The notes under the pieces: generated by a model
The model's database searches: none
What the model was told of the DNA's origin: nothing
Seen by the model: the letters and a program-made list of their open reading frames with translations, nothing else
Assembly: GCA_030606485.1 (NCBI GenBank)
Contig: JAUWGH010000005.1
Coordinates: 210,001 to 242,000 of the forward strand
Length of the DNA stretch: 32,000 nucleotides
Reading direction: 5' to 3'
Source of the DNA: Promethearchaeota archaeon
GTDB lineage: Archaea; Asgardarchaeota; Lokiarchaeia; Sigyniarchaeales; SOKP01
Program-made: the position numbers and the translations under genes
Part shown: in pieces, positions 2-24,365 of the stretch
Position numbering within the stretch: the first letter of the stretch is position 1
Layout of the letters: each line of letters starts with the position of its first letter

Positions 2-955
2 AACTCAAAATATATGATAGATCGGACAAGAAGGATTATTTCTCATCTTTATGGACTGTTATATCGAATAAATTTTTATTATTCGAAAAAAATACTCCCA
101 ATTTTTTGCTTTGATGGTTGTGTACATCCCTATAAACGATTGATTACCAAAGATAAATTACATGACTTCCAATACATTAAACAAAAATACAAAGAAGCAA
201 TAGAAAATCATAATTACCAACTTGCTCAACAAATCGCTACTGGAAAAGAATTTTTGTGGATTAATACAATTCAAGAATCAAAAAAGATGTTGTCATATTT
301 AGGAATTCCTTACGTGGAATCTCCTGCATCAGCGGAGTCACAATGTGCTTGTTTAGTCAAGGATAAAGTGGTAGATTTTACAATTAGTCAGGATTTTGAT
401 TGTTTAGTCTTCGGCAGCTTGGGACAAGTTAGAAATTTATCAAAATCGAGAGTAAGGAAAATAAATAATAGTTGGCAATATACAAAAGTAAAACCATCCA
501 TCATTAAATTAAAAGAGAATTTAAAAAAATGGGGCATTGATATATTTCAATTAGTCGATATCGCAATGCTTATTGGAACAGATTATAATAAAGGAATTAT
601 GGGAATAGGCCCCAAATTAGCGTTAAGGTTTATTAAAAAATTTGGCCATGTGGAATCAGTTATCAAAAATTGTGCGTCTAAATTTGATTTCTCAAAGTTA
701 AATGAAAAAAAAATCGCGGAGATTAGAAAAATATTTCTATTTCCCGAAGTAATTAGCAAATATTCTAATTTTAACTGGAATTATCCCCAAATAAAGAAAA
801 TTATGGAATTTTTGTGTGAGGATCATACATTAAATTCAAAAAGAATTAAAAATAATATAATTAAATTTACTAATAATTACGAAAAATGCATATCTTTTTT
901 TAAAAACAAGAAATTAATAACTTTAAAGCAGAGAAAACTATTTTCTTTTATCTAA
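2..955 (+). CDS. fen: Flap endonuclease-1 (FEN1/XPG family) homolog, 5' truncated by the window edge
   Basis: Frame is open from base 2. Motifs SHLYGLLYR, FDG, SQDFDCLVFG and the H3TH motif LIGTDYNKGIMGIGPK are present, plus a C-terminal PIP-box-like QRKLFSFI. Several canonical residues are changed (see findings). Confidence 0.88.
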   Translation, partial: NSKYMIDRTRRIISHLYGLLYRINFYYSKKILPIFCFDGCVHPYKRLITKDKLHDFQYIKQKYKEAIENHNYQLAQQIATGKEFLWINTIQESKKMLSYLGIPYVESPASAESQCACLVKDKVVDFTISQDFDCLVFGSLGQVRNLSKSRVRKINNSWQYTKVKPSIIKLKENLKKWGIDIFQLVDIAMLIGTDYNKGIMGIGPKLALRFIKKFGHVESVIKNCASKFDFSKLNEKKIAEIRKIFLFPEVISKYSNFNWNYPQIKKIMEFLCEDHTLNSKRIKNNIIKFTNNYEKCISFFKNKKLITLKQRKLFSFI

Positions 956-2327: not shown

Positions 2328-4358
2328 CTAAATTCTCTTTTTGAAAAATCCTCTCAATAATAGAAATAATTCATCTTTATTATCAATGGGAATAATTTGA
2401 ATTTCATATTTTTGAGAAATTTTTAATAAGTTTCTTTTGACATACTTCTTCTCATTTTTAAAAATCTCGGTAAAATCAAGAAATTGGGCTATAATTATAA
2501 TGATTTTAAAATTTTTCTTAAATTTTTCAATAAAATCTTTGAACTGATTACTTGCATTTTGTTGTATTAACTTTCTAGGTTTAAAAATGTGAATACCTAT
2601 TTGATTCTGAATTTGAACATGATATTCATTAGAAGATACCTGAAATTTAATACCGGAGGCGGAGAAAAATTGTCGAATTCCAAAAAATAAAGGAATATTT
2701 TTACTTAAATTTACAATAGGAGAAAGATAATTATCTAAATTATCATTTTGCGATATTGTTATATGTTTATTTTTATTTTTTTGTTTAATAATTTCATGGA
2801 TTTTTTTCGGGTTTTTTAATAATTCATGCATTTTTTTAAGTCTATTTAAAGAAATATGTAAATATATCTCTTCTGAAGTTCCTCTACAATAAAGGATAAA
2901 TACTTTACCTTCACGAATTCTAGCTGTTCGCCCTTTACGCTGTATAAGTCTAATTTCTGAAGCAACAACATCATAAAATATAACAAGATCACATTCTGCA
3001 ATATCAAGCCCCTCTTCTGCGACATTTGTAGAAATTAAAACATTATATTTTCCTTCTTTAAAATCATTAAGTATTTCTATCTGCTTTTTCTGAGAAAGTC
3101 CTTTATCTTGACTTGATTTAGTTGCTTGTCCCACAAATCTTTTTGGTCTTATTAAACTATTTTTTTTTAATTTAGAAGTGATAGTTGCTACTGAATCTCT
3201 TAGTTTTGAAAATATTAAAATTCTTGTATCAGGATTTACCTTCAGCTCCTTTAGGATTATTTGTTTACAAATATTAAATTTTGGATGGATTAATAGTAGT
3301 TCATCTAATTCATTATATTGCCGAAGTTCATTGAAGATTTTATTGATTTCATAATTATTCGCTAAACTTATTAACGCTTTAGAGGCATTTTTTTTTGAAG
3401 ATTGATTTTTCATAGATTTTAAATAAGATAATAATGAATCAAGTCCTTGACTTTCAACTAAGCTTAACATATGAAACAGCCTAAGTATTTGTGCATTAAC
3501 TGATAATGCTTTATAAGCACCTGTTTTACTTCCATCTCCATTAATTATTTGCAAAAGATCACTATTTAATTTTATTAAATCTTTCTTATAGATATTTTCC
3601 AATTGTTCTTTATTAGAATCGATAAATCCAAGAGAATTTAGATAATTTAATCTTTCTTGAATCATATTTTTGAAAGCAGAAAGAAAAATTCTCATTAAAT
3701 CTGTCATATCAACACCAACTTTCCAAATTTTCATTGGTTTGATATATTCTTTGACATCTTTATCATCTCTTGTTCTAAGGAAAATATTTGAATCGGGAAT
3801 ATGCAAATTCTTGCAAAGAACTGAGATTTTTTCTTTGTTTGACCCTGGAGAGGCAGTAAGACCAAGTATAAGACCATCATTATTATGTTCAATATATTCA
3901 TCAGCAATTTGACAATAAGCGTAGTCTCCTTGAGCTCTATGGGCTTCATCGAATATAACTAAACAAACATTCATTAAAGAATATCTATTATTTATGATGT
4001 CATTCCTTAATGTTTGAGGAGTATAAAATAAGACCTGGTTATCAATAAATTCATAGGTTCTTTTATTTGGTTCAATCTGTCCAGTCAAAATACTGAATTT
4101 TTCACCGGGAATATTTAAGAATTTCAAAAAATTTTCATGATGTTGGTTAATCAAAGGACGTGTTGGTGCTAAAACTACCACTTTGCTATTTGGTGGAGAA
4201 TTCTCAAGAGTATGAGCTGCAATAATTATAGCTATTATCGTTTTCCCTAATCCAGTTGGAATCACAACTAAGGAATTATTACCAAAACATTTCTTAGCAA
4301 TATTTACTTGATACTCTCTATGGTCAATTTTCTCGTTATTAAGAAAATTAAACTTCAA
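2328..4358 (-). CDS. hef: Hef/FANCM/Mph1-family SF2 helicase with a degenerate C-terminal ERCC4-like domain
   Basis: Motifs IPTGLGKT, LAPTRPL, DEAHRA, LGLTASPG, RFVGQ, STNVAEEGLDI and QRKGRTAR are diagnostic of this family. Confidence 0.93.
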   Translation of the reverse strand: MKFNFLNNEKIDHREYQVNIAKKCFGNNSLVVIPTGLGKTIIAIIIAAHTLENSPPNSKVVVLAPTRPLINQHHENFLKFLNIPGEKFSILTGQIEPNKRTYEFIDNQVLFYTPQTLRNDIINNRYSLMNVCLVIFDEAHRAQGDYAYCQIADEYIEHNNDGLILGLTASPGSNKEKISVLCKNLHIPDSNIFLRTRDDKDVKEYIKPMKIWKVGVDMTDLMRIFLSAFKNMIQERLNYLNSLGFIDSNKEQLENIYKKDLIKLNSDLLQIINGDGSKTGAYKALSVNAQILRLFHMLSLVESQGLDSLLSYLKSMKNQSSKKNASKALISLANNYEINKIFNELRQYNELDELLLIHPKFNICKQIILKELKVNPDTRILIFSKLRDSVATITSKLKKNSLIRPKRFVGQATKSSQDKGLSQKKQIEILNDFKEGKYNVLISTNVAEEGLDIAECDLVIFYDVVASEIRLIQRKGRTARIREGKVFILYCRGTSEEIYLHISLNRLKKMHELLKNPKKIHEIIKQKNKNKHITISQNDNLDNYLSPIVNLSKNIPLFFGIRQFFSASGIKFQVSSNEYHVQIQNQIGIHIFKPRKLIQQNASNQFKDFIEKFKKNFKIIIIIAQFLDFTEIFKNEKKYVKRNLLKISQKYEIQIIPIDNKDELFLLLRGFFKKRI

Positions 4359-4413: not shown

Positions 4414-4788
4414 TTACAAACTCAATTTATTATAAATCTTTTCTACTCTAGGAGCGATTTTTGAAAGCAATTGATTATATTTTTTAATTTTATCTTTTTG
4501 TGCTTCAACGCTTTTAATAACTCTTTTAATCTCTGTTTCAGTATATAATTCAATTAAATCTTTAATATCTTCTACTGAACTAACTCCATGCTCAATTATC
4601 AATTTCTTTAAGTCCTTTTGTTCAATTTGCCCGTTAGTTAATTTTAAAATGGTCTCTTTTAATATTGCTAAATATTGAGTGTCAAAAATAATATCTCTTA
4701 TGGATTCTAAGATGAAATCTAAAGTATTTAATTTAGTTTTTGTTTTATCTGGTGATATATTTTCAACATTTCTTATTGTTTCTTCCAT
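4414..4788 (-). CDS. Hypothetical helical/coiled-coil protein upstream of hef
   Basis: 124-aa ATG ORF with amphipathic helical character, co-oriented with hef and 55 bp upstream of it. Confidence 0.6.
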   Translation of the reverse strand: MEETIRNVENISPDKTKTKLNTLDFILESIRDIIFDTQYLAILKETILKLTNGQIEQKDLKKLIIEHGVSSVEDIKDLIELYTETEIKRVIKSVEAQKDKIKKYNQLLSKIAPRVEKIYNKLSL

Positions 4789-4930: not shown

Positions 4931-5057
4931 ACTTCCTGTTCAAAATAAAAATATTTAAAGAAAAAATTTATCAAAGAGCGTCAACACATATGCTTTTTAT
5001 TTATATATCTTCGCTCTATAATTTTGCAAATAATAAAATAAATTAAATAATTTAATT

Positions 5058-6013: not shown

Positions 6014-7285
6014 TTATTGTGTTAAATATAGAAAACGTTCTAAGTAATAAACCCATACTTGACCAATGTTCGTACTTAAAACGAAATCATTAGCATGTCC
6101 TGCGAATGGGAATATTAAAAGACAGCATTGAACCCCTTTCGACTCCATCTCTGATTCTAAAGTTTCAACCCCTGTGATCGATACTTGACCATCACTAGTT
6201 CCTTGAAAGAAAAGTGCAGGTGGGTCTTGGGGGTCAGCAAGCTTTGTAAGGTCGTAAGCATCGTACATCTCGGGATTTGTAGTTTTATTTTCTTTTAAGA
6301 ATATTTCTGGAGCTGCTGAAGGAGAATATAGAGGAATTATCCCCTTCACATTCAAGTTAGGACTAAACGTACCATTATGATATTCTTCATTACATCCTAA
6401 TCCCATTACACCTGCAAGATGTGCTCCAGCTGATCGACCCATAAAATAAACGGAATCCAAATTTGCCCCATATGTCATAGAAAAGTTAGTCTCAAGTAGA
6501 TTCGTGAAGATACCTATATGTCGAATCTGATCTTCTATAGTGAAATTACCCATCACATGCTCGGGTGTATCGGGAGCCTGAGCATAATAATGGAAACCCT
6601 CGATCAATCCGTACTCAATGTCAAATACAACATAACCTTGACTTGCCAAATATTTACTAGTTGAAATCATATTCCAAGTACCTTTTCCCCCAGAAACCCA
6701 AGCACCTGGGTGTAGATTGATAATGACACTCCCATTACCAGGCAATTGTGAGGATGATTGAGCAGACATATATACATCAAAGAACAGTGTGATATTTTCA
6801 CCTTCATAAAATAGAACATCTTTTTCTACATGAATTGGTTTTTCGGGAATTGTTAGAATATGCGCAGGCAGAATATAAGGTGTCTGGAGGAAATGTTGTT
6901 TAACATCTTCAGGGATGGTACTTTCCCAATTAGGCCCAAAAACCTCATCGAATTCAGCATTGGCGTGCAATATTGTGAAGGGGGTGGCTAGTAAGGAAAT
7001 AGAATTCAATCCAGCAATTGTAAAACCAATAATAGCGAGAGCATAATATTGTTTTGGATGACGAATTCTTTTGGAAGAAAAGAGTTTCAACAATAAAATT
7101 GTGGCTGAAACACAAAGACCAACCATCAAAGTCGCACTTTGCGCGACAAATTCCTCTAGTAATATCATAACACCCCGTAATTGCCTACCTCCGACAAATA
7201 GTAAATATATCCACAAGCAACCCCAAACTAAGATTGTGATGCAAAAAATTACCAATAACAGCTTGAAAATCTTGAGTTTATTCAA
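6014..7285 (-). CDS. Membrane-anchored alpha/beta hydrolase (HSL-like esterase/lipase)
   Basis: Three N-terminal hydrophobic segments, oxyanion-loop-like HPGAW, nucleophile elbow GRSAG, Asp in GTSDG and His in GHAND. A GGAGG lies upstream of the TTG start, and the gene overlaps the upstream gene by 8 bp. Confidence 0.85.
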   Translation of the reverse strand: MNKLKIFKLLLVIFCITILVWGCLWIYLLFVGGRQLRGVMILLEEFVAQSATLMVGLCVSATILLLKLFSSKRIRHPKQYYALAIIGFTIAGLNSISLLATPFTILHANAEFDEVFGPNWESTIPEDVKQHFLQTPYILPAHILTIPEKPIHVEKDVLFYEGENITLFFDVYMSAQSSSQLPGNGSVIINLHPGAWVSGGKGTWNMISTSKYLASQGYVVFDIEYGLIEGFHYYAQAPDTPEHVMGNFTIEDQIRHIGIFTNLLETNFSMTYGANLDSVYFMGRSAGAHLAGVMGLGCNEEYHNGTFSPNLNVKGIIPLYSPSAAPEIFLKENKTTNPEMYDAYDLTKLADPQDPPALFFQGTSDGQVSITGVETLESEMESKGVQCCLLIFPFAGHANDFVLSTNIGQVWVYYLERFLYLTQ

Positions 7286-7991: not shown

Positions 7992-8306
7992 ATGATATTT
8001 ATTTCATATTGGGAGTTAAATCCAGATTTTGATCCATCAGAATTATCTGAAATTGCGCAAACAATCCTTAGCAAGAAACTCTATCCAGTTGAAGGCACAA
8101 AGACAATTGCTTGGTATATCAGCACCTCTGATTTTTGGGGCATATCAATAACAGAAGCGGATACCGAAGAACAAATGGCACAAGGCACATCAGTATGGAG
8201 AATCGCCAAACCGGGTGTTTTTAAATTCATAAAAACTACGCCTGCTATGGAATTGACTAAAATGCTTCCAATTATTATGAAACTTGGTAAAAAATTAAAA
8301 GGATAA
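7992..8306 (+). CDS. Small DUF3303/ferredoxin-like-fold hypothetical protein (ORF track start 7938; ATG 7992 preferred)
   Basis: Pattern MIFISYW...G.KTIAWY.....WGISITEADTEEQM....W resembles DUF3303/GYD-like proteins. Confidence 0.55.
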   Translation: MIFISYWELNPDFDPSELSEIAQTILSKKLYPVEGTKTIAWYISTSDFWGISITEADTEEQMAQGTSVWRIAKPGVFKFIKTTPAMELTKMLPIIMKLGKKLKG

Positions 8307-8340
8307 GAAAAATCTTAAAAATAAAAATTCAATTAATCTC

Positions 8341-8350
8341 TTTTTTTTTT
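8341..8350 (+). terminator. Oligo-T terminator candidate
   Basis: T10 run 35 bp after the stop at 8306, typical of archaeal termination signals. Confidence 0.45.
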
Positions 8351-8400
8351 AACTCTGTAGCCGTAATTGACGTTTAGGAGTAGTAGTAAAAATAGATCAT

Positions 8401-8827
8401 CTAATCCATGCCCCCTATCAAAATTTTTTGTGTAAAATCATAAAGCATTTCATAACGATTTTTTGCAGTATTTTCTAACTCTCCACTTTTAATTTCAATA
8501 ATATTAATCTTTTTGAGAATATCTGAATTTAGGAAAATAATAAAAAATGTCTTGGAAAAATATTAACACAAAAGAGATAATTATCAAACTCGGGAATAAG
8601 AATGAGGCTACCAATACCCCACACTACAATAATATAACAATAAAGTAAATATTATAAATATACCAATGATAAAACCACTTTTTTAAAAAAATAAAAAATT
8701 TATTCACATCTTTGAAGACAGGACGTTCATTCCAAATGTTAATGTCAGTAATGGCTCCAAATCTATTTAAATCTTCTTTCTCCGAAGGTTTTAGGTCTTT
8801 TATGATATATTTTGGTGATTTGCTCAT
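8401..8827 (-). pseudogene. Interrupted small membrane protein gene at the end of the cluster
   Basis: The ATG overlaps the upstream TGA (ATGA). The ORF stops at TAG (8624), but hydrophobic coding-like sequence continues in-frame (CGVLVASFLFPSLIIISFVLIFF) and in a shifted frame (ILKKINIIEIKSGELENTAKNRYEMLYDF, to 8401). Confidence 0.45.
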
Positions 8828-9702
8828 TTTTTTCCTCTAATAAAAAATTTAATAAAGATATAAAAGCAAATAAAACTAATTAAACCGGTAAATGTTGCGC
8901 TAGGATATAATGATACAGCCAGTATAGGCACCAGGATAATCTCCATAAATATAAAACTCAAAAATATCGCTGAAATAATACCAAAAGATAATATAAGATA
9001 TCCTGGCATCCATAATGTGTAGATTTTATATTCTAAATTATCAGATAAGGTTCCAATGATCTCTATTTGGTGAGATTTTTTCTTTAAAGTCTCTATATTT
9101 TTTTGGATAGAATCTAAGGTTGCTAATTTTCTGAAACTTTTATCAAAAGCTAGTTTACCTTTCTCATAATCTCTCTTAATTTTATCAATATCATTTTGAA
9201 TACGATTGGAGATCATTTCTTGTAATGCATCTTCCATGTTAGTATTATCATAATTCTTATTTTTTTTTCCAAAGACTAAATTGTACCCCTTTAGTGTTTG
9301 AAAATTAGCGTATTTACTTGTCTTATAACTTTCAATACCTTGAAAAACATTAGGAACCCTAATTCCTTTAAGTTCATAATATTCTTCAACTAATTCTTTT
9401 ATATCATACTGATCTAGTTTTAGGTTTTCAGAAGAATTACTAACTTTATCATATAAAGTATGAAAATTAATTAATTTCTGAATATGTTCTCCAAATAAAA
9501 CAATATTAATATTATTTAAGAGGAATTGATCGATTATTATCATATAATCATAAATTTTTTCGTTGAATTTAGGAGTTCTAATATTTAATTTTATACCGAT
9601 TTTTATGATCGCATTATAAATCAAATCTAAATAGATTTTAAATAGGTCATTGTAATTTTGATTCTCGATTAATATTTTAGTAGCTTCTAATAATTTTGAC
9701 AC
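8824..9702 (-). CDS. Hypothetical protein: soluble helical/coiled-coil N-domain plus 2 C-terminal TM helices
   Basis: GTG start directly abuts the upstream TAG (9703) with GGAGAGTGA just before it. Two hydrophobic segments lie at the C-terminus. Confidence 0.75.
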   Translation of the reverse strand: MSKLLEATKILIENQNYNDLFKIYLDLIYNAIIKIGIKLNIRTPKFNEKIYDYMIIIDQFLLNNINIVLFGEHIQKLINFHTLYDKVSNSSENLKLDQYDIKELVEEYYELKGIRVPNVFQGIESYKTSKYANFQTLKGYNLVFGKKNKNYDNTNMEDALQEMISNRIQNDIDKIKRDYEKGKLAFDKSFRKLATLDSIQKNIETLKKKSHQIEIIGTLSDNLEYKIYTLWMPGYLILSFGIISAIFLSFIFMEIILVPILAVSLYPSATFTGLISFICFYIFIKFFIRGKK

Positions 9703-10458
9703 CTATGATTCACTCTCCAAGCGTATATTATCCAGATTAAATTTTTCTTTTTGTAGTTTTCCGTTAGAAGATCGATTGAATGTCGTATCTTTCTTTATCC
9801 TCTCTTTCATTATTATTTTATCAAAATCTATTTTTTTAGTACTTTCTTCAATTACTTTATCAATTTCAACCTTATTCTCCTTTAATTTGAATTTTCGAGG
9901 GATCTGTAAAACTATAGCAGAAAAAGGAAACATAAAAATAAAAGAAATTATATGTAAGATACATCCAGGACCAAGCCAATAATAATATAAAGTTTCAGAA
10001 TTTTCAGAAATAATATAAAGTTTTAAAAATGGAAAATAGAAATTAGCCTGAAATAAATTAAATAAAAATAATGCTAATATGATAAGGTTAAATCCAAGAT
10101 TTGCGGGAAATATATAATTTAAAGTCTTTACCTTATTATAAAAATCTTTCTTGCTGAAGAAAAGCGGATGCTCGAGTGAAATATAAAAAAATGAAATTGC
10201 TGAAAAAACAAAAATAAACACATAAAGCGAAAGGACTACCACATCAATCTCAACTATCCCAGGACAACCCTTAGAATTATTTGTAAGGCAATTCCATCCT
10301 ATGACTATGTTATATCCCCAAATTGTAGTTTCATTGATGATATAAGCGTAATAATACCACTCAGAGAAAAAAGATGCAATAACTAACACTATCCCTATAA
10401 TATACAAAATTTTAAAGCATCTTACAATCTTCTCACTATTCTCAATCATTTTAATCAT
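9703..10458 (-). CDS. 4-TM membrane protein with a claudin/PMP22-like first loop and charged cytoplasmic tail
   Basis: Four hydrophobic helices and W34...G54-W55-x-C57-x7-C65 in the first loop. YYYWLGPG precedes TM4. The start overlaps the upstream gene by 8 bp. Confidence 0.72.
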   Translation of the reverse strand: MIKMIENSEKIVRCFKILYIIGIVLVIASFFSEWYYYAYIINETTIWGYNIVIGWNCLTNNSKGCPGIVEIDVVVLSLYVFIFVFSAISFFYISLEHPLFFSKKDFYNKVKTLNYIFPANLGFNLIILALFLFNLFQANFYFPFLKLYIISENSETLYYYWLGPGCILHIISFIFMFPFSAIVLQIPRKFKLKENKVEIDKVIEESTKKIDFDKIIMKERIKKDTTFNRSSNGKLQKEKFNLDNIRLESES

Positions 10459-12841
10459 CCTTTAAGAAATCTTTAAATATATTTTCTGGTGGGGCTCCTC
10501 CCGTATAGCCGATGCTTCTTTCAAATACAGTATTCTCTTCAAATTTTTGAACATTTTCTTCATGAAAATTATTAATTTCTTTATAGTCTTCAGTCAATTT
10601 AGTATTCTTCTGAATTATTTCGATAATATTATATACTATATTTACAATTTGAGTAAAAGAAATCTGATTTATGTGCCCCTTCAGTTCCCGAATTTTCTCT
10701 ATTCTTTTTATTGCTTCTATAGACTTATTTTCAAATAGGATATTACATTCAGCGCATATTATATCTAGTAGGGAAGAGATATTATGGATCTCATCGGCTG
10801 ATTTATTCAAACGATGTCCTATAAAATCTCTTATTTTCAACACAAGAATTGATCGAAGAATACAATATGCTTTGTAGAAACTATGTTTTTGCTTAAAATA
10901 ATTAAAAAACTGCTTTAGTTTGTTTAAATTCTCATTTGTTATGGCGATATTTACTAAGTTTGTTTCAAATAATTCAACAAATTCCGAAAAAGTGTGAGGA
11001 TTTTCAATCTTTTTTAATAAATCATTGGGAATTGGACGCTTATTATATATTTCATATAGGAATTGCTCTCTTTCATGAGGATTAATTTGATTTAAGGCTA
11101 TAGATAAATTTTGCCTATCAAAATCCGGATGATCGAACCCGAATGGGCTATTGTAGTTCTGAATAATCTCATATTGGTTTTTTTTATATATGTATATGAA
11201 GATACCTGTTAGAAGTATTATTCCCATTATAAACGGAATTAGCAAAACTTGAAAAACACTGACAAAAATTTTATCATTTACAAACAATGAAATTAAGTCA
11301 GAAACCCCAAACACTCCTAATAAAATGCTTATTAACCTTAAAGCATTGCTTAATTTTATCTTATTATCAATAAATAAGTTAATTGGCTGCTTCTTGATAC
11401 AAATTTTTTCAATGGAACTTCTTTTCTGTTCCAAGTAACTTAGTAAGTCAGTTAAATCGTTGATATTAACAATATATAAATCAGAAGATTGTTGAAATGC
11501 ATATGGAATATTCCTCTCCAAAAAACCAATTTTATTTTGGGATATGATAATTGGCTGAATTATAAAATTGTATTGCATACGCCCTCTATAATAAAAATAA
11601 CCTTTACTTGATATTCGAGTTTTTTCTAAGGAAATATCATCATTAATATAAGAAATGAAATTTTTAACGATTGGTCCCTCATCTTCGAGATCATTTGATA
11701 AAATCTGAACAACATCATTTAAATCTTCTTTTATTGACTTTACAAGATTTTTACGCTCAATCGGAGATAAATTTGTATTATTGCTATTATAATCAATCTT
11801 TTTTTCTGAGATAAGTAATAAACCATATAGTTTAGCAAGTTTTAGTGGCAAAATATGGCATATATCTAAAAATTCATTAATATGCTGTGTTTTAATTGCT
11901 AAAAAATCAATCTTATTATATAATTCTTGAAAATCAATATTATCATTAGGAAAAATTTGGTAATTATTAGCAATTAACGTTTTTCTTAACTGTGCTAATA
12001 ACATTTTGACCGATTTTTTATCTAAAATTTCACTCTCCATGCTATTTTCTTCAATTTCAGGTGTATCTGAAATCACCATAATTTGATCTAACCCATTTAT
12101 TTTGTTAGGTTTATCGAGTGAATCTATGCTATCCTCCTCCACTTCATTATCCTCTAATAATATTATTTCTGATTGAGCTAATTCAACTTGATCCATTACC
12201 TTAGATTCAACCTCAGTTATGGGATTCATTTCTCCTTCAGTATCATGATTCTGTAAAGGAATTTGATCATTTGTACCAAAATTGATTTCCTCAAATTCTG
12301 CATTAATCTCTTTAAATTCATCTGAATATGGCTTTTGCTCAGTTTTACTTGATTTTTTGTTCAAAGAGATTGATAAATTCTCATTTAATATCTTTTTAGT
12401 TAATTTACTAATTTTCTCTTTTACTTCATTTATTTCATTTATGTCTATGCCTTTATTTCCTAATTTATATAAAAAATTCATTGAATCTCTTATTTTCTTA
12501 TAAAGATTTACTGATTTCTTAAAATCCTTTCTCTTCTCCTCATTTTTTGCCTCTTCTAACAATTTCTTAATTCGTTTCTCATGATAATTTGTTTTAATCA
12601 TTAATTGATGTTCAGCGAATTTTTTTACCTCAGAATCTAATGATTTCTCTGGCAATATTTCTTTTTTCTCGTTTAAATTATTGATTGCCATCTCAATATG
12701 AACAATAGCCGACTCAAGACTTTCTAGAGTTCCTTCTTTCTCCAATTTCTCTGCTTCATTATAATGATATTTATAATCTGCTCTGTCTATAGTTTCTAAT
12801 GTCGTATCACTTTGATATAAGTAATTGTCCATAATATCCAA
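10451..12841 (-). CDS. Large hypothetical 2-TM protein (N-terminal TPR/MIT-like helices, acidic linker, alpha/beta domain, TM hairpin, C-terminal helical domain)
   Basis: 796-aa ORF (ATG alternative at 12832) with a TM pair around residues 500-555 and an E/D-rich linker. Confidence 0.8.
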   Translation of the reverse strand: MDIMDNYLYQSDTTLETIDRADYKYHYNEAEKLEKEGTLESLESAIVHIEMAINNLNEKKEILPEKSLDSEVKKFAEHQLMIKTNYHEKRIKKLLEEAKNEEKRKDFKKSVNLYKKIRDSMNFLYKLGNKGIDINEINEVKEKISKLTKKILNENLSISLNKKSSKTEQKPYSDEFKEINAEFEEINFGTNDQIPLQNHDTEGEMNPITEVESKVMDQVELAQSEIILLEDNEVEEDSIDSLDKPNKINGLDQIMVISDTPEIEENSMESEILDKKSVKMLLAQLRKTLIANNYQIFPNDNIDFQELYNKIDFLAIKTQHINEFLDICHILPLKLAKLYGLLLISEKKIDYNSNNTNLSPIERKNLVKSIKEDLNDVVQILSNDLEDEGPIVKNFISYINDDISLEKTRISSKGYFYYRGRMQYNFIIQPIIISQNKIGFLERNIPYAFQQSSDLYIVNINDLTDLLSYLEQKRSSIEKICIKKQPINLFIDNKIKLSNALRLISILLGVFGVSDLISLFVNDKIFVSVFQVLLIPFIMGIILLTGIFIYIYKKNQYEIIQNYNSPFGFDHPDFDRQNLSIALNQINPHEREQFLYEIYNKRPIPNDLLKKIENPHTFSEFVELFETNLVNIAITNENLNKLKQFFNYFKQKHSFYKAYCILRSILVLKIRDFIGHRLNKSADEIHNISSLLDIICAECNILFENKSIEAIKRIEKIRELKGHINQISFTQIVNIVYNIIEIIQKNTKLTEDYKEINNFHEENVQKFEENTVFERSIGYTGGAPPENIFKDFLKDD

Positions 12842-12857
12842 TAGATGTTCAAATAAG

Positions 12858-12872
12858 TATATTTAAATAAAA
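12858..12872 (-). promoter_or_regulatory. TATA-box-like element upstream of the 796-aa gene
   Basis: TTTTATTTAAATATA on the minus strand, 26-40 bp upstream of ATG 12832. Confidence 0.45.
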
Positions 12873-12909
12873 AAAAACGCCAAAGTTTTTTTTATATTGG
12901 TGAAAACAC

Positions 12910-13335
12910 TTAAATAGAAGAAGACTTAACTTTTTGATTCAAATTCCTTATGAAAATTTTATTTGGTGTATAAAAATCTCTTTGAAATTCGATTTCATAA
13001 GGCTCAATATCTCTAATATGTATTTTTTCTCGTAGATCACGATATGAAACAAACCCTTCTAAAGTATCAAAAATATAATCTATTCCAGGAATTAACCTGA
13101 AATAAACTGAGATATTCGTTTTTGGATTCAAATTTGGAATTCTATGAATTTGTTTTGGCTCTAATTTCATATCTATGGGAATTTTGTGTAAGAAAAATTT
13201 GAGATTATAAATATTAAATTCTGAGTTATTCTCTAATTTAATCCCAAAATATAAAATACTATGATCCCGTTCTGTTTTCCATATTCCCGAGCATGAAATT
13301 TTTATGTCATCTGGATCAAATAACTCTGATTCCAT
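12910..13335 (-). CDS. Small beta-rich protein, Ig-like/adaptin-appendage-like sandwich
   Basis: Alternating beta pattern LYFGIKLENNSEFNIYNLKFFL...IPNLNPKTNISVYFRLIP...LEGFVSYRD, typical of CARDB/appendage-type Ig folds. Confidence 0.6.
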   Translation of the reverse strand: MESELFDPDDIKISCSGIWKTERDHSILYFGIKLENNSEFNIYNLKFFLHKIPIDMKLEPKQIHRIPNLNPKTNISVYFRLIPGIDYIFDTLEGFVSYRDLREKIHIRDIEPYEIEFQRDFYTPNKIFIRNLNQKVKSSSI

Positions 13336-13372: not shown

Positions 13373-13520
13373 GAAGTGAGAAAAAAAAGTATTAAATGGT
13401 TTTAATTGTAATATTTGTAATTAATTTATGATTTTTTCTTTATAAATTGCAATTTTAGCAATATTTAACTGATTTAAAAAAGGTTCAATCCAGATTAATT
13501 AAAGAACCTCTTAAGAAAAA

Positions 13521-16052
13521 ATGACAACCACTAATTTTGAAAAATCACCGGAGGAAATAATCTCAGAACTTAATCAATATATAGATGATGAAAGAATAGT
13601 TAGAATCTTATTAAAAAATAACATTTATAATTTACGAGATATCCAAAAAGAAGCTATTATTAAGGGACTCTATTTTAATAAATCTTTTTTAGTTGTTGCA
13701 CCTTCCGGTAGCGGAAAAACATTGATTGGCGAACTATGTATTGTTAATAATATTTTCAAAAACTATGGAAAGGCAGTTTATTTAGTTCCCTTTAAGGCAT
13801 TGGCTTCAGAAAAATTTCTTTATTTCAGAAGAAATTATGGAAAATACGGAATAAAAACAGAATTATCAATCGGGGATATTGTCATTGACGACAAGGAACT
13901 TCAGAAAGCCGATATAATTATAACTACATATGAGAAGATGGATTCGATATTAAGAAATTATAAAGAAGAAAAATGGATTAATGAAATTACTACAATTATT
14001 ATAGATGAAATACATTGTGTTGGAGAGAGAGAGAGAGGTCCGAGGTTAGAATCATTAATTGTTAGATTGAATGAATTTTTGATTAATCCTCAAATTATTG
14101 CTTTATCTGCCACAGTAGCAAATCCTGAATTTTTTTGCAACTGGCTATCGTCACTTGGGCAAGAATTTATCTTAATAATTTCTAATGAAAGACCGGTTCC
14201 ATTAAAATATAATATTAAAGTGTCACAAAATAAAGATTCAACCATTAAACACTATGTAAATGAAATTTTAAAGAAAAAAGGCCAAATAATAATATTCGTA
14301 AATAAAAGAAAGGAAGCGCAAAAGCTTGCTCTATACCTGAAAAATTTTATAAAGAAAAAGTTAGATCCTCAAGAACTATCAATTTGTAAAAGACTATCCC
14401 GGCAATTAGAAAACATCAAGGGAGGAATTACCGAATTAAAGAGCTACATAAAAGGAGGTGTGGTTTTCCATCATGCAGGGCTTCTCTCAAAAGAGCGACA
14501 AATAATCGAAGAATATTTCAATAAGAGAATTTTAAAAGTAATTTGTTCCACAACAACTCTCTCGGCAGGAATAAACACACCAGCTCGCATGGTAATTATT
14601 AAAGACTTTAAAAGGTATCAAACAAGTGTAGATAATATTACTGATTTTTCTAAATTTTATGAAGATTTTAGCAATGGATTTACTTATTTTGAGCCTTTTT
14701 CAAGAAATCAAATTTTCCAGATGTTAGGTCGAGCAGGCCGACCTGGTTTAGATCTTAAAGGTTACGGAATAATACTTGTAAAAAATATTGAAGAAAAAAT
14801 ATGGGTGGAGGATCACTATTTTCAAATTGGAGAGGATGGGAAGCGATTGGTTCCTATATATAATCCCATTCAATCAGCCATAAATTCAACTGAAACTTTA
14901 AGAGAACAAGTATTATTAAGGGTTTTTGAGCAAGAATCCATTTCATTTAATGAACTAAAAAACTTTTTTGAAAAAACATATTACTGGAATTGCATAAAGG
15001 ATAAAATAATTCCCATAGATCAATTCCTACGAATTAAAGAGATAACACCAGAAAATATATTGAAATTGCATTCAAATCCAGAGATATTAGAAAAAATCAA
15101 AAATTCCAACTTTCAGACAAAAATTACAAATATTTCAAAGGATTCAATAGATGGAATTGTCAAAACTGATTTTGGAGTCTTTCATGTAAGATTTAATATA
15201 GATAATGGAATTACCTGTAGTTGCAATTTTAATAATAGAGTTGGAGAAGATCTACTAGGACAAAATTCTTGTAGCTTTATTTTTTGCAATCACGTAAGTA
15301 GTTTTCTTTTATCTTTGGTTTCTCATACCGATGTAAGAATAACAAAATATGTAAATGATATAATTCCCAAAAGCGTGAGGGGAGAATATATTTTAGATTA
15401 TTTAATTGAGAAAGGTCTTTTATTAAAAGAAAGAAATAGATTAATTTGCTCGAATTTTGGAAAATTAATAATTAAATTATATCTATATCCTTCAAGCGGT
15501 GTAAAAATTAGAAAAATGTTAGAAAATGGTGAGATCAATAATTTTAAAAGTTTAATTAAGTGTTCTTTTGTTGTTTTAAAATCTGAATCGAGAATTAGAG
15601 ATATGAAGTTGATGAAACCACTCATTTGGTGGGCAGATGAAGAACCTTTACACAATATTTTAGATGAATTTAAAATTTATGCTGGGGACTTATTTTCGAT
15701 TAAAGAAAACATTATCAGAATTATCAAATTTATTGGAATAATTGCATCATTTATCGACGACGATAAGACGGCAAACTTATGCGAAACGCTATCTATACGG
15801 CTAACTCATGGAATTCGTGAAGAATTATTTGATTTAGTTTTAAGGTTGAGGAATGTAGGAAGAGTCAGGGGTCGCATTTTGTATAATGCTGGATATCATA
15901 TAGCATCAAAAATTCTTTCTGAAAACCCTCATATGTTGCAGCATAAAACAGGTATAAACTTGACAATCTGTAAATCAATAATACAATCAACAAAATCAAG
16001 AAAAACTAAAAGTAAAATAAAACAATTTGAGGGGTTTAATGCATTAGCATGA
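13521..16052 (+). CDS. hel308: Hel308/Ski2-like SF2 helicase with inserted SWIM zinc finger
   Basis: Motifs APSGSGKT, DEIH, LSAT, FHHAGL, TTTLSAGINTPAR and QMLGRAGRPG; C-terminal HhH-like VGRVRGRILYNAG; insert C566-x-C568-x20-C589-x-H591. Confidence 0.9.
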   Translation: MTTTNFEKSPEEIISELNQYIDDERIVRILLKNNIYNLRDIQKEAIIKGLYFNKSFLVVAPSGSGKTLIGELCIVNNIFKNYGKAVYLVPFKALASEKFLYFRRNYGKYGIKTELSIGDIVIDDKELQKADIIITTYEKMDSILRNYKEEKWINEITTIIIDEIHCVGERERGPRLESLIVRLNEFLINPQIIALSATVANPEFFCNWLSSLGQEFILIISNERPVPLKYNIKVSQNKDSTIKHYVNEILKKKGQIIIFVNKRKEAQKLALYLKNFIKKKLDPQELSICKRLSRQLENIKGGITELKSYIKGGVVFHHAGLLSKERQIIEEYFNKRILKVICSTTTLSAGINTPARMVIIKDFKRYQTSVDNITDFSKFYEDFSNGFTYFEPFSRNQIFQMLGRAGRPGLDLKGYGIILVKNIEEKIWVEDHYFQIGEDGKRLVPIYNPIQSAINSTETLREQVLLRVFEQESISFNELKNFFEKTYYWNCIKDKIIPIDQFLRIKEITPENILKLHSNPEILEKIKNSNFQTKITNISKDSIDGIVKTDFGVFHVRFNIDNGITCSCNFNNRVGEDLLGQNSCSFIFCNHVSSFLLSLVSHTDVRITKYVNDIIPKSVRGEYILDYLIEKGLLLKERNRLICSNFGKLIIKLYLYPSSGVKIRKMLENGEINNFKSLIKCSFVVLKSESRIRDMKLMKPLIWWADEEPLHNILDEFKIYAGDLFSIKENIIRIIKFIGIIASFIDDDKTANLCETLSIRLTHGIREELFDLVLRLRNVGRVRGRILYNAGYHIASKILSENPHMLQHKTGINLTICKSIIQSTKSRKTKSKIKQFEGFNALA

Positions 16053-17321: not shown

Positions 17322-18578
17322 ATGATTTTTAATAAAAACCTTCAAATATTTGATTTACCAGAAAAAACAATTGATTTTTTCTGTGACGGCTGTAGATCAG
17401 ACGAGATTATCGAGTCTGATGGTGGTTATGTTTGTAAAAATTGTGGATTAACATTAGATTTACCGATCTTTCAATATAACTCTCCCTATAATCAAGATTC
17501 AATTCAAGTTTATTCTAATGAACTTAAGAAAACAACAAAATTGGGGACTAATTTAGAAAGGAGAGCAAATTCACGCTCTGTTGAGTTAGAGCGAATGTCT
17601 AAGATGCAAAGGATTTCTAATGAATATAGCAATTTAGTACTTCAAATAGCTGATTCAGAATTTAATCGTATCATAACTGCCCTTCATCTTCCTAATTCGT
17701 TAAAAATTGATTGTCTCTTCGTTTTTAAGAATATTTGGAAAAATTTAAAAAAAGGAACTAAAGGAAGATCTGCCGAGAAGTTAGTCCCCGTTATTCTCTT
17801 TATGGTTTCAAAAGTAAAAGCAATCAATTTCGATTTTATAAAATTTAAAAACATTTTAAACGTAAGTAAAAGCGATTTTAAAGCGATTTTAATGGAAGCA
17901 TCTCGCTATTATCCAGCTTACGCTAAGAGAGATAGAAAACAATTGATCCTTAAAAAAATATATGAAATTTGTTTATCCTTTAATTTTAACAATGATTTCA
18001 CAAAAATTGCAAATATTATACTACTGAGATTTTGGCCATTTATCAAAAATACAAAAGATGATGTGATTGCAGGTGTGGTGACCACCTTAACAATGATTGC
18101 TAAAGACATTAATTCCGTTTCGATCTCAAGTATTTGTGATAAGATTGGAATTAAAATGAGCACAATTAATTACCAAGTTAAAAATCATATTTTCAGTAAA
18201 AAGAAAATTTCAGGATTTAGAAGTTTAGTAAATTCATCAAATTTGATAAAAGAAGTAATCGAAGGTGTTGTGTTTGATACACAAATAGTTTTACCTGAAA
18301 TTAATCAAGATCTCTCAGTTGGGAAAGAAATTGATGAATCTGATAAAAGTGAAATTGTTATTATAGATCTAAAAAATGAAAACGAACATCATTTTAATGT
18401 AAGTTTGAATGATTTTCGAGAGATAATACCTCATAATTTACATTCTGGATCACTTCAATTTACCATAAATACTTATCCACTTAATCTTTTAGAGAACTAT
18501 ACAAATATAATAAATAGGAGCGATTTTCAAATTTTAAAATTAAATAAAAGGCATCCGAAAAAGGGCCCTCCTATATAA
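17322..18578 (+). CDS. Divergent TFIIB/TFB-like protein (Zn ribbon plus cyclin-like repeats plus C-terminal extension)
   Basis: C21xxC24...C38xxC41 ribbon (CDGCRSDEIIESDGGYVCKNCG), then RIITALHLPNSLK...KGTKGRSAEKLVPVILF, resembling TFB cyclin repeat 1. Confidence 0.7.
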   Translation: MIFNKNLQIFDLPEKTIDFFCDGCRSDEIIESDGGYVCKNCGLTLDLPIFQYNSPYNQDSIQVYSNELKKTTKLGTNLERRANSRSVELERMSKMQRISNEYSNLVLQIADSEFNRIITALHLPNSLKIDCLFVFKNIWKNLKKGTKGRSAEKLVPVILFMVSKVKAINFDFIKFKNILNVSKSDFKAILMEASRYYPAYAKRDRKQLILKKIYEICLSFNFNNDFTKIANIILLRFWPFIKNTKDDVIAGVVTTLTMIAKDINSVSISSICDKIGIKMSTINYQVKNHIFSKKKISGFRSLVNSSNLIKEVIEGVVFDTQIVLPEINQDLSVGKEIDESDKSEIVIIDLKNENEHHFNVSLNDFREIIPHNLHSGSLQFTINTYPLNLLENYTNIINRSDFQILKLNKRHPKKGPPI

Positions 18579-21121: not shown

Positions 21122-21275
21122 TCTTGGCAAAAAAAACAACTCTTTTAGATTTTTTTCAAGTTTGCTTTTATATGATTTATTTATTTAAAGTTATATATAA
21201 AAATTTTCATGAATTTCTTTCTAATTTGGAAATTATGTTAATTTTTCTTTATATATTTATATTTGTAGTCTTTTT

Positions 21276-24200
21276 TTGATTAAATTGACTAAACTTAAAC
21301 ACAAAATATTGGTTGGAAGTCTAATAATATTCATTTTTGGGATGGCTGGATTTATTTCTATATTATCATCTAATAAAACAGTATCGACTGATTTTTCCCA
21401 AGTAAATATGAAACGTATAAACTCATCAGCATCAGGTCTAAATCAATCCGAAATAAATGATTTATTAGATGGAAGATTAGCAAAATATAATCTGTATGGT
21501 CATTTTGAGGAATATTATGTCCCCTCCATAAGAGATACTTATTTTGCTTTATATATTTTGGATGCAATCGGAAAATTAAATCAAACTGACAAGGTTGCTA
21601 TTTCCAATTACATTATGAATCATTACAATGCAATAAATAATGAGTTTCAAGATGATTATTCACTTAGATTCTTTGATCTCGATAATTCCGAAGCATATTA
21701 CCAAAATTCCCCCCTATTAACCTACTGCTATGCAGTTCTTTCATTAATACTATTAGATCAATTAGATTCTTTAGTCCCAGCAGATATTATGAATTATATC
21801 TGGAATTGTTTCGATTCAAATTCAGGCGGGTTCTTTGGTTTTCCCACTCCTGATAAATCACCTCAGAACATTACAACTGCCGAAAATACTTTTTTCGCCG
21901 TAATCGTTTTAAATGAATTAAGTATTGACTGGGACCTCTATGTTATTCAAAAAACTCAAATTATATCTTTCTTAAATTTACTTCAAATTCAAAGTCCTTA
22001 TAACCCATTTACTCATGGAGGTTTTAATAACGATTTAGAAGATACTGTAGATACCGTTTTAAGATATGATCCAAACTTAAGATCTGCTTTTTTTACAATA
22101 AATACACTAAATTCATTGAATATGTTAAGCGCAATAAATATTGATAATTTCTTGCAATATATTGGAGGATTATATAATTCAGATTCAGGATGTTTCTATT
22201 ATAATTATTTTTTTAGAAATGGGTCCCAAATCAGCTATAATATTTTTTCTACAGGTTTAGGGATGGAACTTGCCGACCTGGTCGGTTATAATTATGATGA
22301 TATACTTTCATTGAATTTTTTATTAAACATAAGAATGAGCGGTGGAGGCTGGGAAAATACACAATATTTAGGGAATTATGAATTAATAGATACGTATGAG
22401 GTTATTCGATATTTCAAAAGAAATAATAAACTTTCCTATATAGATAATTTAACAAAAGAAGAGATTTATCATTTCATTTTACGATTTCACCAATTCAATG
22501 GGTTTTCATCTTTATCGAAAGACCACACTTCGTTGAAAGTTATTAGTAATACGATTAAATCTTTTAAATTAAATAATAGAATTTGGGATTTAAATCCATA
22601 CATTCAAGATTTATATGATGTTATAGAATCGGCTCATAAATACTATGAGTTTGGAGATCTAGGTGAAGGTACTTGGTACGGACCAGTTGCTACAAACTTA
22701 TCCAGTGTCAATTACAGAACGGCTCCATTGGAATATAAAGGAACCAGGAGCCATAATTATTCCCAAAATATAGGATTTTTACATTCCGCTGAGCAAATTT
22801 TTTACGCTCTTTCTGCTTTAGATGACATCTTTAAGCTAGACGACTTTTCTTCAGCAAATAACCTTACTGAATTACTTGAACATCTAGTAGATTGCCAGTT
22901 TTTAGAAACAGGATATGAAAGATATGGAGGGTTTATTCCAGATTATCAATTTACAATATACCCTCCAGAAAACTATGAAAATTATATTTATCTGCGATAT
23001 GCTTACTTTACCATCAGAAGTATAGAGATTCTCGATACATTCTTAGATGATGGGGATATTACTGATAATGGGATTAATACAACCGCCTTAGTTTCATTTA
23101 TTTCTAAGCAAATAAGAGAGACCGAACAATATTTATATTATGAGCCTTATTATTCCAGTGAAATTGGAGATAATATCGAAAATGCTTATTTTATGGTATA
23201 TATCTTAAAAACTCTTGATTTATATTCCTTAGAAACTGATAAAATTATGAATTATATAATTAATAATATTGATTATTCTAATTTTCGAGATATATATAAT
23301 CTTTTTAAATTATCAAAACTATTGAATTATTCTGTTAAATATAACTTAGATGCAGTTCGAACATTGATTAGGGACTTATATATTAATGAAGATCAAGAAT
23401 TTCTTGAATCTTATAACTCGGAAACATTTGATACCGATGTTCTATATTGGATTTGCGATATTGCTGCAAATGATGAAATTAGATTAAATTATAATATTGA
23501 AGATCCTATTGGGTTGGGTAATTATTTTTCAATTAATGCTATTATTTGTAATTTAATTTTGGATGATTTTGGTTCCACAGCAAATTTAAAATTCGAAAGC
23601 GAAGATTTGGGGGTCTTCGAATTAGAGCATCAAGAGGGTATTTTCTCTAAGGAGATCTATTTACCCCTCAATCCTATGTTTATTTCAGGAATAGTTGGAT
23701 ACTTGAATGTATATATAGGTTTAGAAAAGGTCCTCGAAGTTCCTGTCTCTTTAGAGACCTATATTGATATAATTACTAAACATTCCTACCATAATCTCTC
23801 TTCAGATGCTATAAAAGTTCAATTTAACTATACAATCAAAACTTCGTTTGGGTCTGAAATACTTGAGAATTCCACCATGTATGTTAATATATTTCTCAAT
23901 GATTCATTAAAAGAATCAGGAAATTCTCAATATTATTTTATCGATAACACAGCATATCATGAATTTTTATATAATTTCAGTGATGGGGGTGTATATACTT
24001 TAGAATTCTATATACGTCATCCATATCTCAATCCTGCGATATATTCACCTACTATAGGAAAGAAAGAATTAACTCTACTAATTAATCATTTAAATGTGAG
24101 CGTAATTGACGATACAGACGATAATGAAGACAATGACAATGAAGACCCTAATCTTCCAGATTCGCCAGATGACTCGTCTAATTTTAATCTTCTAATTAAT

Positions 24201-24365
24201 AATATACCTACTATATCAGGTATTTTTGGATTTGCAATTGTTTTAACTGTATCATCAACTATGATAAAGAGAAAGCATAAAAAAGATGAAATAATTGAAA
24301 AAAAAAATAAAATGAAGATAAAAAAAAACAATAAATCAGAAGATAATAAAGATCTGAAATTATAA
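21276..24365 (+). CDS. Large exported, C-terminally anchored protein with prenyltransferase/squalene-oxidase (alpha/alpha barrel) repeats and Ig-like stalk
   Basis: N-terminal hydrophobic signal; repeated GGF/GGW plus TY.A...L..L units; beta-rich region; acidic linker DDTDDNEDNDNEDP; TM helix followed by KRKHKK. Confidence 0.8.
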   Translation: MIKLTKLKHKILVGSLIIFIFGMAGFISILSSNKTVSTDFSQVNMKRINSSASGLNQSEINDLLDGRLAKYNLYGHFEEYYVPSIRDTYFALYILDAIGKLNQTDKVAISNYIMNHYNAINNEFQDDYSLRFFDLDNSEAYYQNSPLLTYCYAVLSLILLDQLDSLVPADIMNYIWNCFDSNSGGFFGFPTPDKSPQNITTAENTFFAVIVLNELSIDWDLYVIQKTQIISFLNLLQIQSPYNPFTHGGFNNDLEDTVDTVLRYDPNLRSAFFTINTLNSLNMLSAINIDNFLQYIGGLYNSDSGCFYYNYFFRNGSQISYNIFSTGLGMELADLVGYNYDDILSLNFLLNIRMSGGGWENTQYLGNYELIDTYEVIRYFKRNNKLSYIDNLTKEEIYHFILRFHQFNGFSSLSKDHTSLKVISNTIKSFKLNNRIWDLNPYIQDLYDVIESAHKYYEFGDLGEGTWYGPVATNLSSVNYRTAPLEYKGTRSHNYSQNIGFLHSAEQIFYALSALDDIFKLDDFSSANNLTELLEHLVDCQFLETGYERYGGFIPDYQFTIYPPENYENYIYLRYAYFTIRSIEILDTFLDDGDITDNGINTTALVSFISKQIRETEQYLYYEPYYSSEIGDNIENAYFMVYILKTLDLYSLETDKIMNYIINNIDYSNFRDIYNLFKLSKLLNYSVKYNLDAVRTLIRDLYINEDQEFLESYNSETFDTDVLYWICDIAANDEIRLNYNIEDPIGLGNYFSINAIICNLILDDFGSTANLKFESEDLGVFELEHQEGIFSKEIYLPLNPMFISGIVGYLNVYIGLEKVLEVPVSLETYIDIITKHSYHNLSSDAIKVQFNYTIKTSFGSEILENSTMYVNIFLNDSLKESGNSQYYFIDNTAYHEFLYNFSDGGVYTLEFYIRHPYLNPAIYSPTIGKKELTLLINHLNVSVIDDTDDNEDNDNEDPNLPDSPDDSSNFNLLINNIPTISGIFGFAIVLTVSSTMIKRKHKKDEIIEKKNKMKIKKNNKSEDNKDLKL

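Follow-up and report, generated by a model that had tools for sequence, protein, structure and literature searches.

The 32,000-nt window analysed here (positions 210,001 to 242,000 of contig JAUWGH010000005.1, assembly GCA_030606485.1) lies on contig C5 of the genome of a Promethearchaeota archaeon (G000; 3.75 Mb, 13 contigs). Its minus strand carries four intact, co-oriented open reading frames (ORFs) of 141, 796, 251 and 292 aa, which we name g1 to g4 in transcription order (Table 1). An earlier note on this DNA described these genes and a fifth, small one as a candidate membrane system of five coupled genes. The junctions it gave are all reproduced from the sequence: a 68-bp gap between g1 and g2, an 8-bp overlap between g2 and g3, a 0-bp abutment between g3 and g4, and a 4-bp ATGA overlap with the fifth frame. 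Purine-rich words resembling Shine-Dalgarno (SD) motifs stand ahead of g3, g4 and the fifth start. The unit runs divergently from the Hel308/TPR genes, and Pfam yields no family at cut-off for any of the five genes. Both ends of the proposed unit, however, were wrong. g1 is a genus-specific insert and the fifth gene is a pseudogene.

The operon was compared across 68 genomes of the family within 301 genomes of the phylum. g3 occurs once per genome in 47/68 family genomes and is found in 51/301 phylum genomes, G000 included. Synteny was counted at 39 fetched loci of the 50 g3 loci outside G000. At 38 of these g4 directly follows g3, which bears out the idea of an undescribed, co-conserved membrane system. 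g2 lies ahead of g3 at 35 loci, and a gene of ~1,230-1,320 aa with four transmembrane (TM) segments follows g4 at 35; the latter include one 154-aa fragment, two cuts by contig ends and one gene split into two ORFs. The operon order is retained at 35 of the 39 loci. The real family-conserved operon is g2, g3, g4 and this large VirB4-like gene. Three of the four products listed as membrane proteins are intact and membrane-bound by hydropathy (g2, one TM hairpin; g3, four TM segments; g4, a C-terminal TM pair), whereas the fifth is not intact and leaves an open frame without TM segments. Downstream of the large gene, 28 loci carry a small helical gene, which at times is longer and includes an NYN ribonuclease domain (L045:2376-3302) or a helical domain (L040:2317-3207).

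g1 is a passenger, a genus-only insert outside the conserved operon. It adjoins the operon at two of the 39 loci, both of the same genus, and with a pseudogene at the other end a set of five subunits is not supported. g2 has a promoter-like element of its own within the 68-bp gap, so that g1 stands uncoupled from g2-g4. Judging from its sequence, g1 is probably an Ig-like or adaptin-ear-like beta domain. In other genera, a genome search finds it embedded as one domain of larger proteins, in open frames 351-803 aa long; a protein-database search for longer homologues returned none. One of the three larger g1-containing proteins scanned has a weak match to PTHB1_GAE (E 0.015, below cut-off).

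The VirB4-fold pseudo-ATPase and the membrane proteins g2 to g4

The centrepiece of the system, missed by the earlier note, is the large gene, which encodes a VirB4-fold pseudo-ATPase and is deleted at this spot. The model of the protein from a sister genome, G040 (residues 20-1106, predicted local distance difference test (pLDDT) 78.7), best matches R388 TrwK, with a Foldseek E of 9e-17 against 7e-11 for HerA. VIA places model residues 89-957 on TrwK 14-803 (Z 27.1, root-mean-square deviation (rmsd) 13.1 overall, 580 aligned); VirB4 4ag5 gives Z 23.6 with rmsd 3.8 on the ATPase core, and HerA gives Z 23.5. In the same model, the protein has the VirB4 N-terminal domain and an FtsK-HerA core. 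The family also has a C-terminal winged helix and a helical domain. Its N-terminal half consists of two internal repeats of 2TM plus alpha/beta (hhalign 99.3%). Sequence searches failed to name the protein: Pfam DUF87 appears in 2/28 at E~1e-3, and NCBIfam and PDB sequence searches gave nothing.

The pseudo-ATPase profile matches 88/301 Asgard genomes, 54/68 of them in the family. Other families hold one-repeat or split forms, likewise without Walker A, and homologues are annotated in Helarchaeota, Freyarchaeota/Jordarchaeia and Baldrarchaeota records; G210, a single-contig genome of a neighbouring family, has no match. A separate pseudo-VirB4 subfamily stands behind CDC48-N-domain and TPR genes in G168 and G008 (L098:6979-12500, L099:7089-12955), where one G168 copy has an internal stop. 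At the distant loci L081, L083, L085 and L094, an M28-peptidase/nicastrin-like membrane protein of ~890-1,020 aa is encoded close to pseudo-VirB4.

HerA defence complexes are among the lower fold matches and, with the NYN ribonuclease domain in some downstream small genes, would fit a complex for anti-viral defence on the pattern of HerA-partner systems, a role that the earlier note had also listed. We consider this extremely unlikely. None of eight proteins matches PADLOC at E<=0.001, g3 is a single-copy gene in a stable position in most family genomes, the ATP motifs are lost, and the gene context is one of recombination.

g2 comprises a cytoplasmic N-terminal part, an alpha/beta domain (~278-478), a 2-TM hairpin (~495-553) and an acidic C-terminal tail. 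Domain and tail are conserved, the tail motif being found in 29/36 orthologues by regular expression. A helix-hairpin-helix (HhH) domain, HHH_5, is present in 28/32 members of the g2 alignment; in the genus of the window its position is taken by a helical region. The central domain has no significant PDB match and no usable Atlas match. It may resemble a PD-(D/E)xK nuclease fold, for which there is no PDB match either: D312 is conserved in 30/32 and K334 in 25/32, with P instead of D/E.

The AlphaFold2 (AF2) model of g3 (pLDDT 79.7) shows four TM helices and an outward beta-sheet. Its Foldseek top match is claudin-9 (E 2.9e-4), and the top structural matches are claudins, TARPs, MP20 and LetA. 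VIA gives Z 11.9 for TARP gamma7 (rmsd 3.2, 165 aligned), 10.6 for LetA and 10.2 for claudin-15. The best value lies below the caution line of ~13 for helical bundles, yet 12/12 top rows are this fold or its relatives, and the strands are modelled. The description 'claudin-like tetraspan' in the earlier note therefore stands for the fold only. The signature of the claudin family is W-GLW-C-C; GLW occurs in 0/47 g3 proteins and the two loop cysteines in 2/47. On the model, g3 is claudin-like in fold and not by claudin family membership. g4 has no Pfam or PDB-sequence match. A HEPN-like kinship of the g4 N-terminal domain, the g2 C-terminal part and the C-terminal domain of the large protein is not supported (hhalign <3%).

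Decay of the operon copy and an intact homologue on contig C10

The frame that had been read as a small TM gene reaching to 8401 is not intact; what remains there derives from a gene of 1,285 aa. The interval 8827-8401 is 427 nt long, not a multiple of 3, and a stop at 8624 limits its open frame to 67 aa, in which hydropathy shows no TM segment. Compared by BLASTN with the intact gene in G040 and G129, the remnant is 89% identical at its 5' end and 95-97% at its 3' end and in the downstream DNA; ~3,431-3,434 bp have been lost between two copies of an 8-bp word. The deletion was checked on contigs from four sequencing runs (X6, X7, X8, X12) of four studies, X8 being possibly the source of this DNA. 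Contigs of three of the four runs bridge the junction: X7 and X8 span 8000-9400 whole, X6 spans the junction, and X12 has no coverage. These contigs rule out an assembly artefact at 8516-8523. Programmed frameshifting or readthrough giving a 142-codon gene is likewise ruled out, as sister genomes show plain insertions and the 3.4-kb deletion. The lesion is genuine and its decay is still polymorphic. In a further genome, G177, the deletion in the operon copy is another, larger one, and the start is mutated.

G000 holds an intact VirB4-like homologue on contig C10. It shares 52% identity with the genus's operon copies, and a FastTree tree places it as their sister (support 100). Of 110 columns conserved at >=90%, it retains 97. 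The C10-type copy of G177, which runs into a contig end, is 95% identical. The C10 gene stands head to head with an M50-protease-like gene, and the island M50-like gene of G000 looks truncated (C5:195345-195590). The C10 cassette consists of exactly the two genes that are broken in the island described below, both with a promoter-like element. The operon copy may have decayed after a genus-level duplication, with the C10 copy supplying the VirB4-like protein in trans by a presumed complementation. This natural knockout and relocation suggest that the pseudo-ATPase is retained and able to act in trans.

Alternatively, the system may be a dying relic in this genome, in which g2-g4 are being lost and the C10 gene has another role. 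The broken operon copy with its polymorphic decay points this way, as do the truncated island M50-like gene, the HhH lost from g2, the weaker variant of the g2 element, and a genome (G201, below) in which decay is under way. We nevertheless hold a relic to be very unlikely. g2, g3, g4, Hel308', Hef', FEN1' and RadA' are intact in G000, and the ratio of non-synonymous to synonymous substitution rates (dN/dS) is 0.2-0.3 for g2-g4 overall (g2 0.21-0.22, g4 0.22-0.31; controls: Hel308 0.09, esterase 0.14-0.26). Between G000 and G177, both without an intact operon copy of the VirB4-like gene, g3 and g4 have a dN/dS of ~0.3. The content of the C10 cassette and the closely similar C10-type copy in G177 also speak against a relic.

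Recombination-gene island and promoter-like element

The operon lies inside an island (C5 ~198-236 kb) with genes for RadA', two TFB-like proteins, an ERCC4/XPF-like protein, FEN1', Hef', Hel308' and a toroid membrane protein. Further copies of RadA, FEN1, Hef and Hel308 are encoded on other contigs, so the island set, marked here by a prime, represents second copies. Hel308' is present at 28/39 operon loci, and a separate Hel308-like gene lies on C10. The island RadAs retain a Walker A of a distinct type; 12 of them and 14 housekeeping RadAs are split by one change in 99% of bootstrap trees, with a branch support of 66/63 and 7 rows ungrouped. Three further RadA-like genes are located elsewhere in G000. 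Nine of the fetched flanks have an orthologue of the TFB-like gene at 17322-18578 within this island, and canonical TFBs are encoded on C2 and C6. Of the two divergent TFB-like proteins (window 17322-18578; G000:C5:200135-200833), one has Zn ribbons and a C-terminal extension and one the core only. An EF-1alpha/Hbs1-like GTPase gene near the island edge (window 27681-28985) is ordinary by Pfam. Synonymous divergence from G129 is 0.07-0.08 for an esterase gene (6014-7285) and g1, and 0.29-0.48 for g2-g4 and Hel308'. This mosaic suggests recombination across the island.

The association with recombination genes extends beyond the family. Many of 17 fetched loci of pseudo-VirB4 homologues in distant Asgard archaea pack the homologue against RadA, RadB-like, Hel308-type, XPD-type or FEN1-type genes. 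Within the family, RadA' is present in 45/68 and Hel308' in 49/68 genomes. Among the 38 family genomes with a completeness of at least 95%, g3, the VirB4-like gene, Hel308' and RadA' are all present in 22 and all absent in 5 (fragments in G180 and G201 scored as absent). Loss of the operon and loss of the island's second-copy genes tend to coincide. In G201 (L056, C17:123000-140000), pseudo-VirB4 and Hel308' are both cut down, g2-g4 remain, and RadA' has no match. The membrane scaffold suggested by the earlier note is consistent with the co-conserved membrane genes, but the gene context favours DNA handling over pure membrane shaping.

The promoter-like element consists of a T run, then C, then TTTA(A/T)A(T/A)A. 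It is found upstream of 30/32 g2 orthologues outside the genus. It also precedes g3 at 14/15 loci with a g2-g3 gap of at least 43 bp and at 0/20 where the two genes are at most 21 bp apart; four loci have no measurable gap. The T tract sits where a purine-rich TFB recognition element (BRE) normally lies, and our guess is that an island TFB reads it. A position weight matrix (PWM) was trained without G000 and ranked over 3,070 G000 ORFs. Besides the elements in Table 1, an acetyltransferase-like island gene ranks 5, the C10 protease-like gene 6, the C10 pseudo-ATPase 11, RadA' 13, a 181-aa gene 21 and the toroid gene 27. Seven of the top 30 matches fall inside the 32-ORF island, which is equalled in 0/2,000 permutations; control matrices place 1 (TATA-only), 0 (T-tract-only), 0 (A tract) and <=3 (40 shuffled matrices) there. 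In other genomes, a score of at least 12 is reached before 10/10 toroid, 4/6 RadA' and 8/11 protease-like genes, and before 0/5 housekeeping RadA genes.

A conserved family of ~72-aa 2-TM hairpins has the element as well, before one of the two G000 copies (score 21.3); the second hairpin copy lies at G000 C2:385553-385810. At G000:C10:76053-78592, three small 2-TM hairpin genes (85, 93 and 82 aa) and a 500-aa gene carry strong elements at 76406 and 78954, and the hairpins are pilin candidates. A duplicated block of a 91-aa gene and a 342-aa TPR gene (G000:C3:55900-57800, C10:79200-81100) has several element copies. VirB4 is primarily a pilus-assembly ATPase. With this, and with the element on small hairpins, the M50-like protease gene, the toroid gene and acetyltransferase-like genes, the system could be a platform for filament assembly or protein export, serving adhesion or protrusions. 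The DNA-repair genes would then share the regulon only, for example in a stress or stationary-phase programme. The packing of distant Asgard pseudo-VirB4 genes against RadA or Hel308, despite no such element there, and the HhH on g2 make this quite unlikely.

Table 1. Features of the operon, its island and the C10 homologue; positions refer to the window unless a genome and contig are given
Feature	Position	Strand	Description
FEN1/XPG-type nuclease (FEN1'), second copy	14..955	+	XPG_I; begins left of the window; other copy on C6
Hef/FANCM-type helicase (Hef'), second copy	2328..4358	-	Pfam; other copies on C6 and C8
124-aa helical protein	4414..4788	-	Candidate match to the small gene after the VirB4-like gene (single-linkage BLAST cluster, by eye)
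Element heading the 124-aa/Hef/DUF1922 unit	4950..4968	-	Score 21.9, rank 3/3,070
Pseudogene remnant of the 1,285-aa, 4-TM VirB4-fold pseudo-ATPase	8401..8827	-	5' ~100 codons fused to last 40 codons
Deletion junction	8516..8523	-	8-bp direct repeat; in G040 one copy at each end of the deleted part
+2 insertion just past premature TAG	8617..8628	-	Polymorphic; missing from X7 and X8 contigs
+1 frameshift in A run	8675..8686	-	Spanning X7 and X8 contigs have no indel here, so common to them
g4	8824..9702	-	N-terminal helical cytoplasmic domain and C-terminal 2-TM hairpin
g3	9703..10458	-	Claudin/TARP/LetA-fold tetraspan (model) and cytoplasmic helical tail
g2	10451..12841	-	Starts at TTG; first ATG at 12832
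g2 promoter-like element, T-tract and TATA	12858..12876	-	PWM 14.7, rank 16/3,070; weaker variant
g1	12910..13335	-	Probable Ig-like/adaptin-ear-like beta domain
Element before Hel308'	13430..13448	+	Score 19.9, rank 7/3,070
Hel308' helicase, second copy	13521..16052	+	DEAD/Helicase_C/Helicase_dom4_arc; divergent from operon
Divergent TFB-like protein	17322..18578	+	Zn-ribbon and weak TFIIB repeat
Promoter-like element (21239-21257) and ~1,000-aa alpha-alpha-toroid membrane protein	21239..24365	+	Prenyltrans toroid
RadA' paralogue	G000:C5:198709-199887 (L100:8709-9887)	-	Intact unusual Walker A; promoter element; 10 kb left of the window
ERCC4/XPF-like gene	G000:C5:206524-207200 (L100 ~16524-17200)	-	ERK-type nuclease motif; distinct from helicase-only Hef'
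Intact VirB4-like homologue	G000:C10:108289-112170		1,293 aa

Proposed role and comparison with known systems

We give an even chance to the proposal that g2, g3 and g4 are the membrane subunits of a domesticated machine, derived from a type IV secretion system (T4SS), that takes up DNA or exchanges it from cell to cell and feeds homologous recombination. Beyond the folds, the gene context and the promoter, we infer the following steps. With its own two TM hairpins as anchors, the VirB4-fold protein would form a passive ring or an assembly platform. g2 may hold DNA at the inner face, through the HhH of most orthologues, while the claudin-fold g3 could turn its outward beta-sheet to cell contact or act as an auxiliary subunit. 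The small co-regulated 2-TM hairpins are a possible pilin or conduit. An ATP-driven step would come in trans from the island helicases Hel308' and Hef', and RadA', FEN1' and the XPF-like nuclease would integrate the strand. A bolder version, which we find unlikely, is an ancient, separately regulated Asgard 'mating' module. Here, the non-canonical T-tract/TATA promoter would switch on the ATP-dead VirB4 ring, the claudin-fold protein for cell contact and hairpins resembling pilins, together with a dedicated RadA, Hel308, Hef/FANCM, FEN1 and XPF, and the module would import and recombine the DNA of partner cells.

Several observations weigh against DNA uptake or exchange. The operon encodes no ATP motor: Walker A (GxxxxGK[ST]) is found in 0/63 full-length proteins among the best 150 profile matches, its position reads NGT/SGG..R, and Walker B is without DE. 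No CedA/VirB6-like or ComEC-like channel was identified in a Pfam scan of the scanned neighbours, where the 5-6 TM neighbour is M50-protease-like. The g2 of the window is without HhH, the 72-aa hairpin family has no significant pilin match in PDB or Pfam, and a shared fold shows no function. G019 and G168 hold g3-g4 and a full VirB4-like gene elsewhere, yet have no Hel308' or RadA' match, and the joint loss can stem from linkage in one island, incomplete assemblies or kinship. As for the element, a score of at least 12 is reached before only 5/28 Hel308', 2/5 FEN1' and 0/10 TFB' orthologues, 21 of the top 30 matches belong to neither island nor C10-cassette genes, and it precedes 0/233 ORFs in the distant Asgard loci.

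A motor that is dead in the whole family and the failure to find a channel would suit a membrane tether or junction without transport. In such a case the dead ring and g2 may anchor chromosomes or recombination intermediates, or g3 may seal cell contacts in pairing or fusion, and the island enzymes would recombine chromosomes. The claudin/TARP fold of g3, the HhH and the C-terminal winged helix fit this role, and the evidence from island, joint loss and promoter applies to it equally. On the other side, the large protein keeps the two N-terminal subdomains with which VirB4 docks to the T4SS membrane complex, the co-regulated small hairpins suit a conduit, and the claudin GLW signature is missing in every g3 protein. 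We therefore regard a tether or junction as unlikely.

DNA exchange in Asgard archaea bears on the origin of sex, and this work offers a candidate machine and a candidate regulon with its promoter element, as well as a possible explanation of why Asgard archaea have an additional RadA. With g3, a protein of the claudin/TARP fold takes its place in an archaeal operon; the earlier prokaryotic extension of the fold is bacterial LetA. In the literature we found no account of this system or of any claudin-fold protein in Asgard archaea, though one may exist in subscription papers or in the supplements to structure-based surveys of these archaea.

The large protein resembles VirB4/TrwK (R388; PDB 8rtb, 7o41, 7o43; T. 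pseudethanolicus 4ag5) in its full-length fold, with both N-terminal subdomains and the FtsK-HerA core. In contrast to VirB4/TrwK, the Asgard family lacks Walker A and B, has a TM hairpin built in before each N-terminal subdomain, adds the C-terminal winged helix and helical domain, and is chromosomal. No VirB6/8/10, relaxase or coupling protein is seen in the Asgard loci.

Like claudin, TARP, MP20 and LetA, g3 has a bundle of four TM helices whose loops 1 and 2 build an outward-facing beta-sheet; the matches extend over 150-170 residues at Z 10-12. Its identity to them is 8-15%, GLW is absent and the loop cysteine pair is rare. The claudin fold was extended to prokaryotes with bacterial LetA in a study whose main text does not use the word 'archaea' (PMC13017536). 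LetA is described there as a pseudodimer with zinc ribbons, whereas g3 is a single domain.

A second RadA clade has been reported in several Asgard groups, in an account that, as far as available, gives no gene context (PMC12722695). It is likewise a distinct extra RadA, and the island RadA is a candidate member of the same clade. Type 4 filament systems are described as not widespread in Asgard archaea (PMC13705601).

With regard to regulation, a TFB paralogue, TFB3, reportedly belongs to the Sulfolobus damage regulon. This regulon has a dedicated promoter element with the published consensus AATAGTTTCRG (PMC6061795). The Asgard element is a T tract fused to TATA and differs from that consensus, although TTTC occurs in both. 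By analogy, Asgard regulation may run parallel to the Sulfolobus damage element.

The closest functional comparison is with Ced/Ted (CedA, CedA1/2, CedB, CedD and CedE; Thermoproteota), described as a domesticated T4SS that imports DNA for repair (PMC9905601; PMC11868833); the Asgard machine may operate in a similar way. Both systems have a domesticated chromosomal VirB4 relative with TM helices and a link to recombination genes. Split N-terminal subdomains are a further parallel, CedB and CedD matching different parts of the VirB4 N-terminal domain (PMC11868833). CedB and CedD are described as ATPases, whereas the motifs are lost in the Asgard protein, which does not qualify as a catalytic ATPase. 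Compared with Ced/Ted, the Asgard system adds claudin-fold and HhH membrane proteins.

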